Shown here: piece after piece, positions 7,951 to 19,227 of the stretch
Position numbering within the stretch: the stretch's first letter is position 1
How the letters are laid out: the number at the start of each line of letters is the position of its first letter
Virus genome (UHGV): UHGV-0127427
Strand: one strand, 5' to 3'
Length of the DNA stretch: 19,497 nt
From: a virus
The notes under the pieces: generated by a model
Database searches by the model: none
What the model was told of the DNA's origin: nothing
What the model saw: only the letters and a program-made list of their open reading frames with translations
Translations under genes and position numbers: made by a program

Positions 7951-8023
7951 GATCAAATGATCAAGTGATCACTATTTGACCTGATAAGGTATTGAACTGT
8001 ATGGATTTACAGGTAAATTGATC
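7951..8023. promoter_or_regulatory. GATC (Dam site) cluster in the cre upstream regulatory region
   Basis: Four GATC within 73 bp (7951-7954, 7959-7962, 7967-7970, 8020-8023) between cre and loxP; consistent with the methylation-sensitive cre promoters described for P1. Confidence 0.55.
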
Positions 8024-9661: not shown

Positions 9662-10429
9662 TTATTCAGCCGCCACCGGTTTTAACAAGCCAGCATCGAG
9701 CAGTTTACGCGTCAACCACTGTTGTCCTTTCCCCGTTAATTGGGGCGTCAGCCGTATCTGGTAGCCATCTTCATCATCCAGCACCACTTCTTTCACTGTG
9801 AAATATCCGGCGTTTATGTACTGCTGGAACGGCACATTTTTACGCCCGCCGGACGCTATCAGAATGCCGTTCTCCCGTAACCAGGCAAACAGCGCGTTTT
9901 GCTTCAGCCCAACAACCTTTGCAAAATTACCAATCAGGATCCCCTTAGCCACTGATACACGGTCGGCAAAATCGACCTTGGGGGCTGCGGCCACCAGTTG
10001 TTGATTTAGCTGGTGGGCCTTCTGTTCCAGTAGCTGCTTTTGTTCAGCCAGCTCGGCAGCCAGGCGCAAGGCTTCAGGTAGTGTTTGGGGGATTGCGACC
10101 GGTTGCTGTTCTTTTTGCCGGAAGTAGCTGTCTTCCAGTTTTTCAAAGAATGCCCATGCTTCATCTGTGTTTACGATCTTAGACATGCGTGCCGCTCCGC
10201 GTTCGGCCCAAAGAATTACCTGGCTTGTATATTTGCTAACCAGGTGACTAGTAGTCACCAGCCTTTTAAATTCCTTTAATTTTGAACCAGTTAAGAGATA
10301 GTAATGCTTACCTTCTTCAAAGCGATCGGAGTTGCGAGACAAATTTTTACGAATATTAGCTTCATCGGTTCCATAAGCGCAGATAAACATCGCGCTTATC
10401 GACATCCAGATGCGGGTATTCCTTTTCAA
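9662..10429 (-). CDS. phage antirepressor-like protein (ORF6N-type N-terminal region plus KilA-C/ANT-type C-terminal region); start uncertain (TTG 10429 or ATG 10405)
   Basis: N-terminal half AYGTDEANIRKNLSRNSDRFEEGKHYYLLTGSKLKEF...ILWAERGAARMSK and C-terminal half DRVSVAKGILIGNFAKVVGLKQNALFAWLRENGILIASGGRKNVPFQQYINAGYF are typical of phage antirepressors; sits where P1 has pacB/pacA/lpa. Confidence 0.65.
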   Translation of the reverse strand: MKRNTRIWMSISAMFICAYGTDEANIRKNLSRNSDRFEEGKHYYLLTGSKLKEFKRLVTTSHLVSKYTSQVILWAERGAARMSKIVNTDEAWAFFEKLEDSYFRQKEQQPVAIPQTLPEALRLAAELAEQKQLLEQKAHQLNQQLVAAAPKVDFADRVSVAKGILIGNFAKVVGLKQNALFAWLRENGILIASGGRKNVPFQQYINAGYFTVKEVVLDDEDGYQIRLTPQLTGKGQQWLTRKLLDAGLLKPVAAE

Positions 10430-10556
10430 GAATTGCTGCGAGTTCTTTCGCTGATAGAAGAGATTTAGTGCGGATCATGTAATCCGCAATCTCGTACGAT
10501 GTTATTCGTGAGTGATTTATTTCCATGAAGTGGCGTCCCTGCCAGTTAAGTAACAT
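10362..10556 (-). CDS. hypothetical 64-aa protein overlapping the 5' end of the antirepressor-like gene in another frame
   Basis: ATG 10556 preceded by AGGTGA at 4-nt spacing; ends within the first codons of the antirepressor ORF; could be a real leader gene or the product of a frameshift. Confidence 0.35.
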   Translation of the reverse strand: MLLNWQGRHFMEINHSRITSYEIADYMIRTKSLLSAKELAAILEKEYPHLDVDKRDVYLRLWNR

Positions 10557-10626
10557 CCTGTCACCTACTGATTAGCCCATGTCAACTAATCAACGTCGAA
10601 TATAATACCCTCGATTAAAGAAATAG

Positions 10627-10643
10627 CAATACATTAGAGCAAT
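10627..10643 (-). promoter_or_regulatory. C1 operator-like site upstream of the 64-aa/antirepressor unit
   Basis: Minus-strand sense ATTGCTCTAATGTATTG (14/17) beginning 1 nt after the pdcB-like stop; TTGCTA-16 bp-TATTAT promoter-like hexamers overlap it. Confidence 0.55.
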
Positions 10644-10644
10644 T

Positions 10645-11691
10645 TTATCTAACGCTCGACGAATGACTTGTGATAGCGCCGACTCCAAGCGCGTAATCAA
10701 AGAACAATCGTTGATGCATCGCCAGCCTACCGTGCGTCTTCTCCCAATTATCGCGGTCACGCTCAATATCACGCTGGCATGACTGGCACAGAGGAATAGC
10801 ATAAATGTCATGCGCGCATAATCGACTATAACGAACGATATAAGGCGTAATGTGAGCGCCAGCTCCCGCCGCTCCACACCCACAGCATGGACGGGAAGCA
10901 ACAAAGTCCATGTACTCAGGTAATTTTAGCGATTGCAGTTTTGGTATTTTGAAATGCGCCATACCTGGGTCGGAGTCAACATCCACAGGGCATACTTTTG
11001 CACGCATCGGCGCGGCGCGTTCTTCCATCATCTGAACATATGCTGTAGCGCGATCGTCATACGGGCGAATATCCGCCTCTTTCAGTGGTCCGCTATCCTG
11101 CGGAGTAGCCTTCATCTTATTTATTATTGATATGCGGCAGACTTCTTCCGGCATCAGGTGCATCATGTTGCGCATGAAAGCCCACCAGCACAGCTCCTGA
11201 ATACTTAAATCATGGCTATTTGAAAGGCCCATTTCCTGACGGGCGACATCCAGTATCCAGTTAACGCGATTATTGTGCAGCGTTTCTTTCAGCTCATTAA
11301 AACCACGCATCCGGTAATGGTTATCGTGATGCCAGCACAACAACACCGCGCTATTGTCTCGTTCAGCGTGGACAATATGGTTGTCACACCAACTACGATC
11401 TGCGGCCTGGCATTGACCCTCTTTCCTACGCAACCACGCCACCAGCGCGTCAATTCCACCAATACGGCGAAACAGTTCATCGCTGTTAAAAAACGGCTGC
11501 AACGCCTCATTTGTTGCCATGGTTTGCTCGGTAACAACGAGGCCGTCTTCCATGTGCTCGATTAACTCACGCGGCACCGGCTCCATAATAAATTTACGGC
11601 CAGCCTCCACCAGCTTTCTGACCTCCTGATCCACTTTGAACGTGGCGAGGCCAAGCTCTTTCTGTACAAAGGGAGTAATTACGGCTTTCAC
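10645..11691 (-). CDS. pdcB: PdcB-like protein (post-doc gene B position), 348 aa, GTG start, Cys-rich C-terminal region
   Basis: GTG 11691 preceded by AAGGTG at 4 nt; C-terminal CCGCG...C..C..C..C cluster suggests metal binding; assignment by position downstream of doc. Confidence 0.5.
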
Positions 11692-11718
11692 ATCACACCT
11701 TTAATCACTGATTGGGCT

Positions 11719-11898
11719 TTATCTGCTGCCCGACATTATCTGTTTAAGCACAACCATTTCCTGACGGCATAACACAGCAATAGCGGTCCTGGCACCAATT
11801 TGCTTACTAACCAGGTATTGCTTTATCTTGCGGCGACTCACGCCATCAAGAAGCATCTTTAACGCTTCACGGGACAATTTGTTGTATTTGCGTGCCAT
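11719..11898 (-). CDS. pdcA: PdcA-like small protein, 59 aa from ATG 11898
   Basis: ATG 11898 lies 4 nt after the doc stop; the track start at 11919 would overlap doc. Positional assignment. Confidence 0.45.
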   Translation of the reverse strand: MARKYNKLSREALKMLLDGVSRRKIKQYLVSKQIGARTAIAVLCRQEMVVLKQIMSGSR

Positions 11899-11902
11899 TA
11901 AT

Positions 11903-12283
11903 CTACTCCGCAGAACCATACAATCTACGTAACGTGGCGGCGACAGAAGATACAGATATCTCGCCAGTCGCAGCGCCTACAGTAAGGTCTGCCAGTTCAG
12001 GTGAATCAAATACCTGCACCCCGTTACGGCGTAGAAATAGCAGCGCACTGTTTAGCGCGGTACGCTTATTGGCATCATTGAATATATGCCCTCTCGCTGT
12101 AGCCACCAGGTAGGTGGCGGAGACTTCGAAAAGGTCGGTGATCTCTTCGTAGGCAACTCTGGCCTGAACTCTCCCGATAATGGCCTCTGCCCTACCCGGA
12201 TCTGACATTCCCGGCAGGCCGCCGTAGCGGTTTATATTCGCATCATGAAGCGCAATAAGTTCTTCCGGTGATATATGCCTCAT
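11903..12283 (-). CDS. doc: Doc toxin (Fic-fold kinase) of the phd-doc addiction module, 126 aa
   Basis: 126-aa [50 protein letters not shown]...; start overlaps the phd stop by 1 nt (TAATG), as in P1. Confidence 0.95.
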
Positions 12284-12504
12284 TATCGGTTAACCAGTTC
12301 CTTGTTGGTGGAGTCCAGGGTGTCAAACAGGGATGCAAATTCAGCATCCAGCGCCGCTTTTTTGTAGGCTTCGAAAGTAGCCTTGCTGACAATTACTGCT
12401 GGCTCACGGCCTCTGCGGGTGATTTCAACCTCTTCCCCGGCTTCAACATTGTTGAGCACTTCAGAAAGGTTGCCGCGCGCGGTACGGAAGTTAATGGATT
12501 GCAT
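12283..12504 (-). CDS. phd: Phd antitoxin, 73 aa
   Basis: [73 protein letters not shown] from ATG 12504 (two codons inside the track's start); matches P1 Phd. Confidence 0.95.
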
Positions 12505-12684
12505 AAACACCTCGTGTACTCGTTATGTGTACACAATTATAAACTTCACAGGCATAAAGCACCAGCACTTTGCAGCTTAAATCACCGGACAATCATCAAA
12601 TTCCCCACTTCGGGCATCATTAATGACATGAGTGATCACACCAAACACAGCATTACTCCCCGTGCATCCATCGTCATCCACTGG

Positions 12685-12966
12685 TCACGCCTCTTTCTTC
12701 CCGGTGCTTAAATCCTCCAGGTGCTGGCGCGGATACTTTCGGTATCTCTTTATGCGATATTCACCCTCCATAGCGCACACAAGCAGCGAACCATCAACTG
12801 GAGTAAGCGAAGAATCAACCACCAGCAAAGCACCCTGCAATATTCCCTCACGGTGATGGCTATCAGCTGCCCGCATGAAGTAGGTTGCTGATGGATGTCT
12901 AATTATCTGCTGATCAAGAGAAATTCGGCTTTCAACATAATCCGCCGCAGGAGAAGGGAAACCCAT
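12685..12966 (-). CDS. humD: HumD, UmuD'-like translesion synthesis accessory protein, 93 aa
   Basis: ORF upstream of phd-doc on the same strand with a UmuD'-like C-terminal region; GAGGT before the ATG; LexA box 19 bp upstream. Confidence 0.8.
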   Translation of the reverse strand: MGFPSPAADYVESRISLDQQIIRHPSATYFMRAADSHHREGILQGALLVVDSSLTPVDGSLLVCAMEGEYRIKRYRKYPRQHLEDLSTGKKEA

Positions 12967-12984
12967 AGCGTTTTACCTCAAAAA

Positions 12985-13004
12985 TACTGTTTATCTATAC
13001 AGCA
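12985..13004. promoter_or_regulatory. LexA box (SOS operator) upstream of humD
   Basis: TACTGTTTATCTATACAGCA, i.e. CTGT-N8-ACAG with AT-rich core. Confidence 0.7.
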
Positions 13005-13140
13005 TACATTAAAGAAGCACCTTTGGTGCAAACGCGTTATGTACATCAACCACCGCTGATGATTTTTGTGCGCTTTGCTACTATTCATCACCGCGGGATC
13101 AGCGTAACCTCGTTGCCAATCAGTTAATAAGGAATTAGCT

Positions 13141-13725
13141 ATGCCTAATCGCATTCCTCTCGATCCTGTATTGCCCAAAAATTTTGACTGCACTCCTAAC
13201 GAGAAACGCTCTAAAGCTCAGCTGGACGCCTAGTGGGACCATCCATATGGGGTTACACAACCTGACGGGAAAATTGTAGTTTATTGTCTGAATGGTGGGG
13301 CGTGGGACCGTCCATCCGTGCTTTGTTTGGCAGATAACTATGATGAAGCCTGTGAACTTGCCGAAAGACAGCAGGCAAGCTGGGTAAAAACACGGTCTGA
13401 ACCGACATTCATGTTTTCAAAAGAACCGCCATTTATACTGGCGAGGATGCCGCAGCGACCGGATCATCAACAAGAAATTGTTGCTGAATTTTCCTCAAGG
13501 GATGAGATGAATCTCTTCTCATTAAAGCAGGAAGAAAGGGATCGCGTCGAAGTGTCTCCAACTCTCGACCACAACCGGATGAACCTGGCCCAGCTCGCCT
13601 GGTACAGCAAAGAATTAGAGATGTCTATTGCCCGGCTTGAAAACGAAAAAGCCGCTATCCAAGTCCAGCACGAAGTAGTTCTGAACCGGATTAGAGAAAT
13701 GCAAAACGATAACAGGGGATTTTGA
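13141..13725 (+). pseudogene. hypothetical gene interrupted by an in-frame amber codon (30 codons, TAG at 13231-13233, then 164 more codons in the same frame)
   Basis: ATG 13141 has a good RBS (AAGGA, 8-nt spacing). The frame has a single TAG and continues open to 13725; the only in-frame restart (GTG 13318) lacks an RBS. Confidence 0.45.
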
Positions 13726-14082
13726 ATGGCTAAAATCGAGTACCATCGCGATCGCGGTAATTACCTGGAAATATACGATCATGAATCTCTTAACGATATC
13801 AACGATGCGTTATATGAATACTGTGAAAAAACGAGCATCACAGATGCACCTGATGCATTTGTCGAGCTGCCGGTATATCTCCGCGACATCTATGCAATAC
13901 GAACACCGCCCGTATCGGTGATTCACATTGGCTATGTCCGCCTGTCCATCGAAGAAGATGAAGATCGTTATATCGTGCGCCACTATACATTGGACAGAAA
14001 AGAACTTCCTAATGAATGGAACATGAGTAATTTCTACAACGGTGAATATGGCTTAAAATCCGCTAATAATTTACGGTCATAA
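13726..14082 (+). CDS. hypothetical protein, 118 aa
   Basis: ATG overlaps the upstream stop (TGAATG) with AGGGGA 9 nt upstream; acidic protein, no recognised motif. Confidence 0.5.
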   Translation: MAKIEYHRDRGNYLEIYDHESLNDINDALYEYCEKTSITDAPDAFVELPVYLRDIYAIRTPPVSVIHIGYVRLSIEEDEDRYIVRHYTLDRKELPNEWNMSNFYNGEYGLKSANNLRS

Positions 14083-14618
14083 TCTATACAGGCATGTATA
14101 ACAACAACGAGCCTATTAGCTGTCAACAACGTTATTTCCTCAAATAAGAAAAAGCAGAAAACAAATTGTTTAAGGTCACAAATTGTGGCCTTGATGGAGG
14201 AGGGAGGCTTATTGGCTATGGCTAAAAATCAAATTAGACACTTCATGTTGCTGTAGCTCATCAAGATCCGAGGCCACAAAACCTTTTCCGAAAAACTTCA
14301 CAAGTAACTCACTAGCCGCATCATTGTCACCTATTACACGAAAGTCATACGGCAACGTCGCAAGTTGACGATGTAATCCTGCTGAGAAAGTCGAATCTAA
14401 CAGCGCCCAGAATTCCCACCGCAGGATAATACTCGCCTCTTAATACTGTATATATGTTGTTACGATATGTTTTTCTGTCTCTAAAAAAAGATGTTTGAAG
14501 GGGATAAAAATATACAATTCCAACAAACGTTATTTTTAACAATTTTTTTCTTTGCGTTGACTTTCCCGGACACCTTGTCTGACCGAAGGTGCGCGAAAGC
14601 CACTTTTTCCTTCCTGAG

Positions 14619-16381: not shown

Positions 16382-16465
16382 GCCGCGTTTCCTTCTTTCT
16401 TATTAACAATTACACCGTCATATATTTCATTAAGGTGGCGAACAACAAGAAACTGATTTCCGACT

Positions 16466-16603
16466 TCACGGACTTCGTTGCTTTCCAGTTCTGCTATCCA
16501 TAAAAATGAAATGGACGCTAACGCCAGCTTTTCGCTGTGCTTCCATCAGATGAACGAGATAAGCCGATGTTCGTCCACCTGAAAAGCTGACGACTTGATG
16601 CAT
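16466..16603 (-). pseudogene. 5' remnant of a PP-loop (PAPS-reductase-like) gene, 45 codons then stop
   Basis: Encodes MHQVVSFSGGRTSAYLVHLM... carrying the SGGxxS PP-loop signature, but terminates after 45 codons; the remainder of such a ~250-aa domain is absent. Confidence 0.4.
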
Positions 16604-16612
16604 ACTCACGGT

Positions 16613-17191
16613 TTATTCCTGAATGCGCTTAAACTCGATTACCCATACCAACGGGTTAGATAGCCAGTTATCCTGCCCGTAAATACTGCGCCAGATATCA
16701 CCAAAACCAACGCGATAAACAGCTTCAGATGGCGTAATCTTGTACGTCGCCGGAGTTGCGCCTTCTGCTTTAGCATCTTCCTCGCTCATGTCATGCAGCC
16801 GTTCCACACGCACGTCGGTAATTTCCAAAAGAATGCGCGATGCCCAGCGCGGCATGTGAATTGATGGCGTCCACTTTTCTGATACTGGTTTATTACAAAC
16901 CTCGACCGGAACCCGGTGCGTTTGTTCTGTCCAGGAGTTACGCACGCTTGCGCGATAAACCAGCGTTGCGACGTCCGTCGCTTTGCCATGTACCCGGTAG
17001 GTTTCGCGAACCCAAATACGATCGCCCGGTTGACCATATGGACAATGCTTGGCAAGCAACTCTGCGGCCACTGCCCGTCCATAGAATTTTTCTTCAACAA
17101 TCCTGCGAGTCTGTGTTTTATTCCCGCCAAGAATTGCCCGGACCATCTCATCGTTAAAAATCATGCCGCGCTCTTTCACTTCGCCTTTCAT
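16613..17191 (-). CDS. hypothetical protein with ASCH/PUA-like N-terminal motif, 192 aa
   Basis: N-terminal MIFNDEMVRAILGGNKTQTRRI resembles the ASCH-domain GxKxxExR signature; AGGGGGA precedes the ATG at 17191. Confidence 0.45.
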   Translation of the reverse strand: MKGEVKERGMIFNDEMVRAILGGNKTQTRRIVEEKFYGRAVAAELLAKHCPYGQPGDRIWVRETYRVHGKATDVATLVYRASVRNSWTEQTHRVPVEVCNKPVSEKWTPSIHMPRWASRILLEITDVRVERLHDMSEEDAKAEGATPATYKITPSEAVYRVGFGDIWRSIYGQDNWLSNPLVWVIEFKRIQE

Positions 17192-17200
17192 GCATCCCCC

Positions 17201-17287
17201 TTACCCATGTGCGACGATGCCGCCAAAAGTGATAGAGAACAGCCAGAAATAGATCGCGGCCATAATGATTTTGAATGCCGTGTTCAT
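17201..17287 (-). CDS. small hydrophobic peptide, 28 aa, translationally coupled to the downstream ASCH-like gene
   Basis: MNTAFKIIMAAIYFWLFSITFGGIVAHG; CAGGAG 8 nt upstream of the ATG; its stop overlaps the RBS of the next gene. Confidence 0.3.
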   Translation of the reverse strand: MNTAFKIIMAAIYFWLFSITFGGIVAHG

Positions 17288-17315
17288 ATTTTCAGCTCCT
17301 GTGATTGATTGGATA

Positions 17316-17346
17316 CATGCCGCGCCTTGCGGCATGTTTTTATTTT
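17316..17346 (+). terminator. plus-strand terminator-like hairpin (CAUGCCGC-GCCUU-GCGGCAUG followed by UUUUUAUUUU)
   Basis: 8-bp stem, 5-nt loop, T-rich tail on the plus strand, 4 nt after the GATTGATTGG motif; both flanking genes are on the minus strand. Confidence 0.4.
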
Positions 17347-17369
17347 CACTTTCTCTGTTTTAAAAATCA

Positions 17370-17386
17370 TTATTTATTAGAGCAAT
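17370..17386 (-). promoter_or_regulatory. C1 operator-like site upstream of the small-peptide/ASCH unit
   Basis: Minus-strand sense ATTGCTCTAATAAATAA (15/17), overlapping the stop of the HAD-like gene. Confidence 0.6.
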
Positions 17387-17892
17387 TATTGTTGATGGAG
17401 AAGCGCGTTTTCATACTCCCTGACCATTAACGTAAGCACGCCGTGCCTCCTGAAAACACGCGCCACTTCAATCTTATCTTCCAGCGCGAACGCAATTTTG
17501 CTTAGACCAATTTTCTTAAGGAGATCAATCTTTGCTGGACCGTCATTTCTGTCATCGGTGGCGGGACGCATAGATAGCAAAGGCTCTGCCCCATTTGTTA
17601 CGTGCTTACGCAACCAGGCTCGTGTTTTATCCCTGGCTATCTCACAGCGCCCGGTTACAAACCAGAGCGTGTAAATGCTGGACAACTGGCGCACCATATC
17701 AATAACTGGAGTGATGGAAGCATCAGTGTCACAGGCAAGGTTAAACTCGTTCCAGTGCTCTGTTAATGCACCGTTGCCAGGCGGTGGAAGTAAATGCAGC
17801 CTGTCTTCCGTTGCCTCCGATATCGTTCCATCAATATCTACTATGACAATGTACGGACGTTCCTGGTGTGCGTGTTTATTGAAAATACTCAA
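17386..17892 (-). CDS. HAD-superfamily phosphatase-like protein, 168 aa, TTG start
   Basis: HAD motif I DxDGT in IVIVDIDGTISEA; TTG start preceded by GAGGAGG at 4 nt; no ATG alternative nearby. Confidence 0.55.
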   Translation of the reverse strand: MSIFNKHAHQERPYIVIVDIDGTISEATEDRLHLLPPPGNGALTEHWNEFNLACDTDASITPVIDMVRQLSSIYTLWFVTGRCEIARDKTRAWLRKHVTNGAEPLLSMRPATDDRNDGPAKIDLLKKIGLSKIAFALEDKIEVARVFRRHGVLTLMVREYENALLHQQ

Positions 17893-17964: not shown

Positions 17965-19227
17965 TCAGCGAACGTAAATAGTGCCGCCGTTCACTTTTTC
18001 CCATGCATCGCTAAGTGCATAGCAAACATCAAGAAGTCTTCTTGCCGCTGTTTCCTCTAAACCCAATTCGACAACCAACTGCTCATGACGGCGGGTAACC
18101 ACATCAAACAGGGTATGCAGCCCTTTAGCTGCCAGATCATCAATAAATTCCGGTTCGAACGGCAGCTCTGCATCTGCCAACATAACCTCTTGCGCCCACT
18201 CAACTCGACGGACCAGTTCCGGGCGGCGGCTTTCCATCTCTTTACAGATCAATTCATGGAAGAACTCTACCCAACCTTCCGGCTGGAACTCGCGGAAAAT
18301 TGCCAACGGCTGGAAGTTTGGCATCAACCATTCGTTGATTCGGATATCAATGGCATAGCCCATGTCGCAGCAGAACTGATAAGCAAAGTCCAGCTTAGAA
18401 ACGATATAAGGACGCTCGTTATTGAACTCTTTAGGCGATGAGATCCCATAAGCCAGGAGGCGCGGGAAGAATGAGATTTGCCCTAACGTCGGATGGAGTT
18501 TGCTTGCAGGAAAACGGCGCTCAGTAATGCCATACATTTCCTTCTTGAGCGTCGCAAATTTAGCATTTTCATTAACCAGCGCGGTAACCTCTGCTTTTTT
18601 ATTAGCAAATGCCACGCGCGCTTCGCTTGCATCTTTAATAGTTTTTTTGAGCTGTTGGTTAAGATCGGCGACCTGCTTACGCAGTTCCTGTCGCTCGCTT
18701 TTAGCTTTGTTATAGCGTTTCTCAAGGTTAAAAGGATCAAGTTTCATGATCTCTTTATATTGAGATTTTAGCGTTGAAATCTGTGAGTTCCGCAGTTCAA
18801 CCATCGCGGTCATTTCATTGAGTTTTGTTTCCAGCTCAATGCTTATACGTTCGGCATTATCAGCACGCTGGTTGGCGTCATGCGTCGCATCGTCGATCGC
18901 GTCCTGTTGCTGGCGTTTCAAATGTTCAATTTGCAGCTGAAGCTCTTCAATTTCTTTACCCTTCAGACCGAGATCCAACTGCATATTTTCAGCTGCATCT
19001 ACCAGGGAGTTATGGCTATCAGCTTCTGCGTTATAAACATCAATAAGCTGTGCGTGAAGCATCTCCGCTGACTGAACCGCATTATCAAAAAAACGCGCTG
19101 TGAGGTCATCACAACTAACGCGGCGTTGCGCGGCCCGGATGTTCTGGATAATGGCCGGGATACCGGCATTCAGGACGTCAGGGATAGATACATTTTCGAT
19201 TGATTGGTTTTGTGCTGAAGTGCTCAT
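17965..19227 (-). CDS. hypothetical protein, 420 aa, long central coiled coil plus globular C-terminal region
   Basis: ATG 19227 lies 1 nt after the upstream 72-aa ORF stop; central ~200 aa are heptad-rich (E/K/Q/L); no catalytic motif recognised. Confidence 0.55.
   Translation of the reverse strand: MSTSAQNQSIENVSIPDVLNAGIPAIIQNIRAAQRRVSCDDLTARFFDNAVQSAEMLHAQLIDVYNAEADSHNSLVDAAENMQLDLGLKGKEIEELQLQIEHLKRQQQDAIDDATHDANQRADNAERISIELETKLNEMTAMVELRNSQISTLKSQYKEIMKLDPFNLEKRYNKAKSERQELRKQVADLNQQLKKTIKDASEARVAFANKKAEVTALVNENAKFATLKKEMYGITERRFPASKLHPTLGQISFFPRLLAYGISSPKEFNNERPYIVSKLDFAYQFCCDMGYAIDIRINEWLMPNFQPLAIFREFQPEGWVEFFHELICKEMESRRPELVRRVEWAQEVMLADAELPFEPEFIDDLAAKGLHTLFDVVTRRHEQLVVELGLEETAARRLLDVCYALSDAWEKVNGGTIYVR

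Follow-up and report, generated by a model that had tools for sequence, protein, structure and literature searches.

The lxr locus and its in-frame amber codon

The window, by which we mean the whole 19,497-nt stretch of UHGV virus genome UHGV-0127427 analysed here, is a P1/P7-like phage-plasmid, as judged from its sequence. On the minus strand it carries doc (11903-12283) and phd (12283-12510), with synteny as in the P1 and P7 records, and humD (12577-12966); beyond a LexA box follows, on the plus strand, a frame at 13141-13725 that is the lxr gene of P1, or upf94.2 of P7. The gene order doc-phd-humD, LexA box, lxr is that of both records. The box, CTGTTTATCTATACAG at 12987-13002 between humD and lxr, is a perfect match to CTGT-N8-ACAG, a pattern that occurs twice in the window as against 0.18 matches expected, and the P1 and P7 records have, at the equivalent position, a LexA binding site that they assign to lxr and humD. 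Since a sigma-70 consensus scan upstream of lxr returned no promoter within its thresholds, we assign LexA control from this P1/P7 site annotation only. The second perfect CTGT-N8-ACAG match, the LexA-box-like site CTGTATGGATTTACAG, lies at 7997-8012 between cre and c1.

The lxr frame comprises 194 codons and a stop, and its ATG at 13141 is preceded, at a spacing of 7 nt, by the Shine-Dalgarno sequence AAGGA (13129-13133) on direct reading. The duplex with the 3' end of 16S rRNA amounts to -6.2 kcal/mol, compared with -6.5 kcal/mol for the neighbouring upf93.6 start (ATG 13726) and with a background across the window of -1.55 kcal/mol on average and -6.1 kcal/mol at the 5th percentile; in this respect the lxr start is on a par with its neighbour. 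In translation, codon 31 is the amber codon TAG (13231-13233), after which 163 sense codons continue in frame to the TGA at 13723-13725. Direct reading and translation thus agree with the initial annotation, which had described a good ribosome-binding site at 13141, a TAG after 30 codons and a long in-frame continuation. When the 489 nt after the TAG were put through 200,000 mononucleotide shuffles, only 17 remained open, and the other two forward frames over the same 489 nt contain 9 and 11 stops, indicating that the long open stretch did not arise by chance. At its far end the lxr stop abuts the start codon of upf93.6 (13726-14082, plus strand, 118 aa) in a TGAATG junction; this downstream gene is known from the P7 annotation and matches PHROG 5797 from end to end.

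With upf93.6 in this position, the window follows the P7 arrangement. As in the locus of P7 Upf94.2 (AAQ07574.1, AF503408), a 585-nt frame diverges from humD across the LexA box and is succeeded by upf93.6, and over these 585 nt the two sequences differ at 13232, 13587 and 13696 only; however, codon 31 is TGG in P7, where the gene yields an intact protein of 194 aa, and TAG in the window. P1 Lxr ('LexA regulated function', AAQ14072.1, AF234172) is an orthologue with the same start, ribosome-binding site and LexA box, near-identical over its N-terminal ~170 residues and likewise with TGG at codon 31. Unlike the frame in the window, the P1 gene is intact, encodes 190 aa with a divergent C-terminal end, and has as its next gene not upf93.6 but hot, on the opposite strand.

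The part of the frame beyond the amber codon has no credible start of its own, as the initial annotation had also noticed. The anti-Shine-Dalgarno duplexes of GTG 13318 (-3.9 kcal/mol) and TTG 13327 (+0.6 kcal/mol) are at background level, and PGAP alternates between the two on identical DNA, yielding either the 135-aa hypothetical protein WP_001354543.1 (13318-13725, plus strand) or the 132-aa WP_001648136.1, so that the start is evidently a mechanical choice. These two records and WP_223656859.1 are translations of the same DNA past the stop, as it occurs in carriers such as pEC21Z048 and pMRE162; the records show them as genes and carry no pseudogene flag, whereas the evidence given here makes them the tail of a broken lxr. 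Indeed, the short downstream ORF is annotated only where an upstream stop is present, and intact orthologues encode a single protein of 190-194 aa, rather than the two separate genes that the initial annotation had considered as a counter-case.

Ancestry of the TAG allele

Alignment with P1, P7 and pEC21Z048 places a single G>A transition at 13232, by which the Trp31 codon TGG, present in both P1 and P7, became TAG in the window. To count the two alleles, we used 35-nt allele-specific megablast queries, in which no 28-nt seed can miss the variable base, against the 72,556 plasmids of PLSDB and 5,426 complete E. coli genomes. As a result, TGG was found in 136 PLSDB plasmids and TAG in 30 (17 from Escherichia, 11 from Salmonella and 2 from Shigella), and the complete E. 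coli genomes gave 169 with TGG and 24 with TAG. The comparison with P1-like orthologues that the initial annotation had proposed thus returned a sense codon for tryptophan in P1, P7 and 136 plasmids, and the ancestral codon 31 is TGG. The TAG carriers come from the wild, having been isolated from humans, poultry, fish and wastewater.

We then tabulated all variable sites in 12 TAG carriers and in six plasmids with TGG at codon 31. The haplotype from humD through upf93.6 (~12475-14090) is common to all 12 TAG carriers, apart from sub-lineage changes, the differences among them lying further upstream, in the pdcA-doc region. Among intact copies, P7 is nearest within lxr (3 nt) and NZ_CP027443 over the 5' end of humD and the intergenic region. 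Furthermore, an allele-specific search revealed a second stop, Trp55 to TGA (G>A at 13305), in 23 PLSDB plasmids, all of them among the 30 with TAG. Since the Trp55 stop is nested in the TAG set, the TAG arose first and the TGA later. The shared haplotype and the nested second stop are direct observations, and with them the TAG allele has, in all likelihood, a single origin. The later gain of the TGA also means that the frame downstream of the TAG is unprotected, which is the opposite of what read-through or a maintained suppression would predict.

Both stops are present in seven of the 12 fetched carriers, together with the lxr changes V38I (13252) and E131K (13531), and in these seven humD and upf93.6 are unchanged. 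The group with TAG only, the smaller of the two, consists of the window, pEC21Z048, p88COLEC, E2 p1, pMTY9803 and three pMRE162 clones. The substitutions at 13232, 13252, 13305 and 13531, which lead through the TAG lineage to the lineage with both TAG and TGA, are all G>A on the coding strand, four changes being too few to claim a mutational bias (sequences L005-L008, L010, L011 and L013). Divergence within the lineage is likewise too low for a meaningful dN/dS. As to age, the host strain of pMRE162 was isolated in 1949 (PMC10652920), and pMRE162 carries the TAG allele, which is therefore probably at least that old.

pMRE162, a 76.9-kb, IS1-riddled derivative of a P1-like plasmid, is also the closest record to the whole window, with 99.9% identity over 88% of its length. 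Like pMRE162, the window lacks ~4.0 kb that intact relatives have between the c1-adjacent antirepressor and pdcB, namely part of the KilAC antirepressor, an icd-like gene, ash, pacB, pacA (terminase) and most of lpa. The junction lies at ~10367-10374 in the window, to be compared with 10436-14454 in the intact relative L022, and that of pMRE162 is similar, with 250 extra bases. With these genes gone, DNA packaging and late-gene activation are probably beyond the element in the window; it is thus very likely a defective prophage-plasmid, where decay of genes is to be expected. A segment at 16437-17821, in the block upstream of a 420-aa ORF (17965-19227), varies in length, from ~1.4 kb in the window to ~0.45 kb in pMRE162 (L020, 17272-17720).

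The window also carries a stop in humD, where Leu codon 94 (12685-12687, minus strand) has changed from TTA to TGA, with C at 12686 as against A elsewhere, so that both of the LexA-controlled genes flanking the box, lxr and humD, are stopped here. This opal codon was seen in the window only, both in translations of the window, pEC21Z048 and P1 and in the table of variable sites. The allele was absent from the 72,556 PLSDB plasmids and the 5,426 complete E. coli genomes, and is hence a private mutation or an assembly error. Many of the differences between the window and pMRE162 are A:T<>C:G transversions, for which reason a mutT-like signature among the private changes of the window was considered; it was rejected after polarisation with two more plasmids, since the changes derived in the window are a mixture of C>A, T>C, C>T, G>A and A>C.

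The Lxr family and its other losses

The intact P7 protein covers positions 1-194 of the 194-position PHROG 6164 profile (E = 3.5e-135), and the P1 protein positions 1-190 (E = 5.9e-130). A functional member of this family is expected to have an uninterrupted frame, and the frame in the window is broken by TAG at codon 31; the window thus holds a pseudogene of the PHROG 6164 family and not a functional member. Among the homologues, the N-terminal ~125 residues are 50-65% identical to stand-alone proteins of ~133 aa from Klebsiella, Enterobacter, Pseudomonas, Burkholderia, Bradyrhizobium, Mesorhizobium and Xanthomonas. Residues 1-125 (13141-13515) thereby form an uncharacterised domain of wide occurrence, and the gene for its P1 member is preceded by a LexA box.

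In an alignment of 16 sequences spanning several proteobacterial genera, Trp31 is invariant, as are W32, D33, P35, G37, the motif C49-L-N-G-G53 and W55-D-R57. Residues 1-59 contain 30 of the 41 invariant positions. The amber codon therefore removes nearly all of the conserved domain, and restarting at codon 60 or 63 would give a product without the core of the domain.

Searches of Lxr against Pfam gave sub-threshold coiled-coil matches only, NCBIfam gave no match, and the best E value of a sequence-profile search against the PDB was no better than 0.045. The AlphaFold2 model (mean pLDDT 84) consists of a small alpha/beta domain and a C-terminal helix of ~44 residues (149-192) that stands apart from the rest. 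The name 'DNA-binding protein', given to Lxr in some NCBI records, was not supported by any model that we ran. PHROGs itself splits the family into phrog_17145, the N-terminal 111 residues, and phrog_10721, the C-terminal 71 residues, and both may come from split annotations of broken lxr genes.

Independent disruptions of lxr are found in other plasmids. NZ_CP080373 has TGG at codon 31 but a separate nonsense mutation, Gln40 to TAA (13258 C>T), which is unique in PLSDB. In the protein database, frameshifted lxr products were detected as P0021 (a 93-member cluster), P0038, P0041, P0058 and P0098, internal deletions as P0028 and, inside the double-stop lineage, P0036, and a stop-loss fusion of lxr with upf93.6 as P0060. 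Dispensability of lxr is in line with published work: a genome-wide CRISPRi screen of P1 scored the gene as nonessential (PMC10695390), and the eight hypervariable regions described for P1-like phage-plasmids include the pmgT-hot-lxr-humD block (PMC9603915). The two papers found to mention lxr do not discuss the TAG allele.

Given the three independent nonsense mutations (codons 31-55), several frameshifts, deletions and a fusion, the loss of lxr may be favoured and not merely tolerated, although we regard this as unlikely. If it were true, SOS-induced Lxr, with its domain conserved across proteobacterial plasmids, could be costly to a plasmid-borne prophage, and there might be an adaptive gain in knocking out the N-terminal domain while sparing upf93.6 and the C-terminal coiled-coil ORF.

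A nonsense pseudogene and the alternatives to it

We conclude with high confidence that lxr/upf94.2 was killed by one G>A transition, which turned the invariant Trp31 codon TGG into TAG, and that the resulting nonsense pseudogene was inherited by one plasmid lineage. This was one of three options offered by the initial annotation, and it is the one borne out by the TGG of P1, P7 and 136 plasmids, by the invariance of W31 and by the second in-frame stop that most carriers have gained. In a sup0 host, translation from 13141 would end after 30 residues with the release of a short peptide, and the function of Lxr would be lost. The transition itself would have occurred once, before 1949, and would then have passed by clonal inheritance into plasmids of E. 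coli, Salmonella and Shigella. That the frame is still open over the remaining 163 codons would be due only to how recent the lesion is in evolutionary terms, and the allele would persist because lxr is dispensable.

For the downstream gene, ribosomes stopped at codon 31 would fail to reach the TGAATG junction, so that translational coupling to upf93.6 would be lost, and the ~490 nt of untranslated RNA may permit Rho-dependent polarity, lowering upf93.6 expression. Against a strong effect, however, upf93.6 has its own good Shine-Dalgarno sequence, and its protein, WP_001062545.1, is unchanged in every TAG carrier that we fetched. On this reading the 30-residue peptide, or a restarted fragment, would be inert.

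The alternative that survives best, with a slim chance of being correct, is that reinitiation or internal initiation makes a truncated but useful product, either of 135 aa from GTG 13318 or, from ATG 13507, a 72-aa coiled-coil tail. ATG 13507 has a moderate Shine-Dalgarno sequence (-5.1 kcal/mol), and the tail would correspond to the separate C-terminal helix of the AlphaFold model. All three nonsense codons seen (31, 40 and 55) lie upstream of GTG 13318 and of codon 60, so the 135-aa ORF is open in every carrier, including all 30 TAG plasmids. The clustering of these codons before codon 60, from which a uniform scatter would most often differ, is weakly suggestive of a kept C-terminal fragment, the events being three only and one of them having struck an already dead gene. 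The fragment from codon 60 would, however, be made from a start at background level, on which PGAP itself alternates, and would lack residues 1-59 with their 30 invariant positions. Moreover, the C-terminal part is frameshifted in other lineages (P0021, P0038 and P0041), and a 7-aa deletion lies within the remnant in the double-stop lineage itself (P0036).

A suppressor host was the second option of the initial annotation: the allele would be a conditional one, giving full-length Lxr only with an amber-suppressor tRNA from the host or from the element. The single-base change from TGG to TAG in an otherwise intact frame, with the start and the LexA-controlled promoter region intact, has the anatomy of laboratory amber (sus/am) mutants of phages such as P1 and lambda, in which one sense codon likewise became TAG and which are suppressible in principle, and a supE or supF host would physically make some full-length protein. 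This much of the option stands, but as a maintained mode of expression we consider it very improbable. Laboratory amber mutants were selected in essential genes on suppressor hosts, whereas lxr is nonessential, so that nothing would select for a suppressor-dependent allele, and its TAG has probably been present in wild plasmids from 1949 or earlier. On the side of the element, an ARAGORN scan of the window, of ~69 kb of the 76.9-kb pMRE162 and of 30 kb of pEC21Z048 gave no tRNA gene. The common amber suppressors insert Gln, Tyr or Ser, and would thus place one of these at the invariant Trp31. Finally, the Trp55 TGA of 23 of the 30 carriers is a non-amber stop that an amber suppressor does not read, and with this nested opal codon the conditional reading is close to refuted.

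Programmed read-through, the third option of the initial annotation, by which a 30-aa peptide and the 194-aa protein would be made at a set ratio, deserves hardly any credence. Its sole support is that the frame is open for 163 codons past the stop. The stop is not conserved, since most orthologues, as counted above in plasmids and in complete genomes alike, have TGG instead. The 103 nt at 13228-13330 fold at -22.3 kcal/mol compared with a shuffle mean of -30.1 kcal/mol, which is worse than all of 200 shuffles (z = +2.37) and indicates that no stimulatory structure follows the stop; in addition, an Rfam search at gathering thresholds returned nothing in the window. A U follows the TAG, a context that makes for efficient termination in E. 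coli. Nor is the downstream frame kept open or constrained, as it acquired a second stop at the invariant Trp55 in most carriers and two nonsynonymous lxr changes in the seven fetched double-stop carriers. A sequencing or assembly error in the window, for which no evidence was seen in the case of the TAG, is practically discounted, since the same base recurs in 30 plasmids that were assembled independently and in 24 complete genomes; these come from different laboratories and platforms and include three separately sequenced MRE162 clones.

The amber codon is thus genuine, but it is an ordinary inherited nonsense mutation of a dispensable accessory gene and not a recoding signal. The amber codon has no bearing on what the conserved N-terminal domain of Lxr does. 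For annotation, the RefSeq hypothetical proteins of 132-135 aa derived from the tail of broken lxr genes inflate protein families. The biological significance is small, with another pseudogene added to the decaying accessory region of a P1-like plasmid, and what is new here is the unflagged lxr pseudogene and a lineage marker only. The nested markers, G13232A and then G13305A, define a plasmid lineage and could serve in typing; the lineage so marked runs from the 1949 isolate to recent resistance plasmids in E. coli, Salmonella and Shigella.
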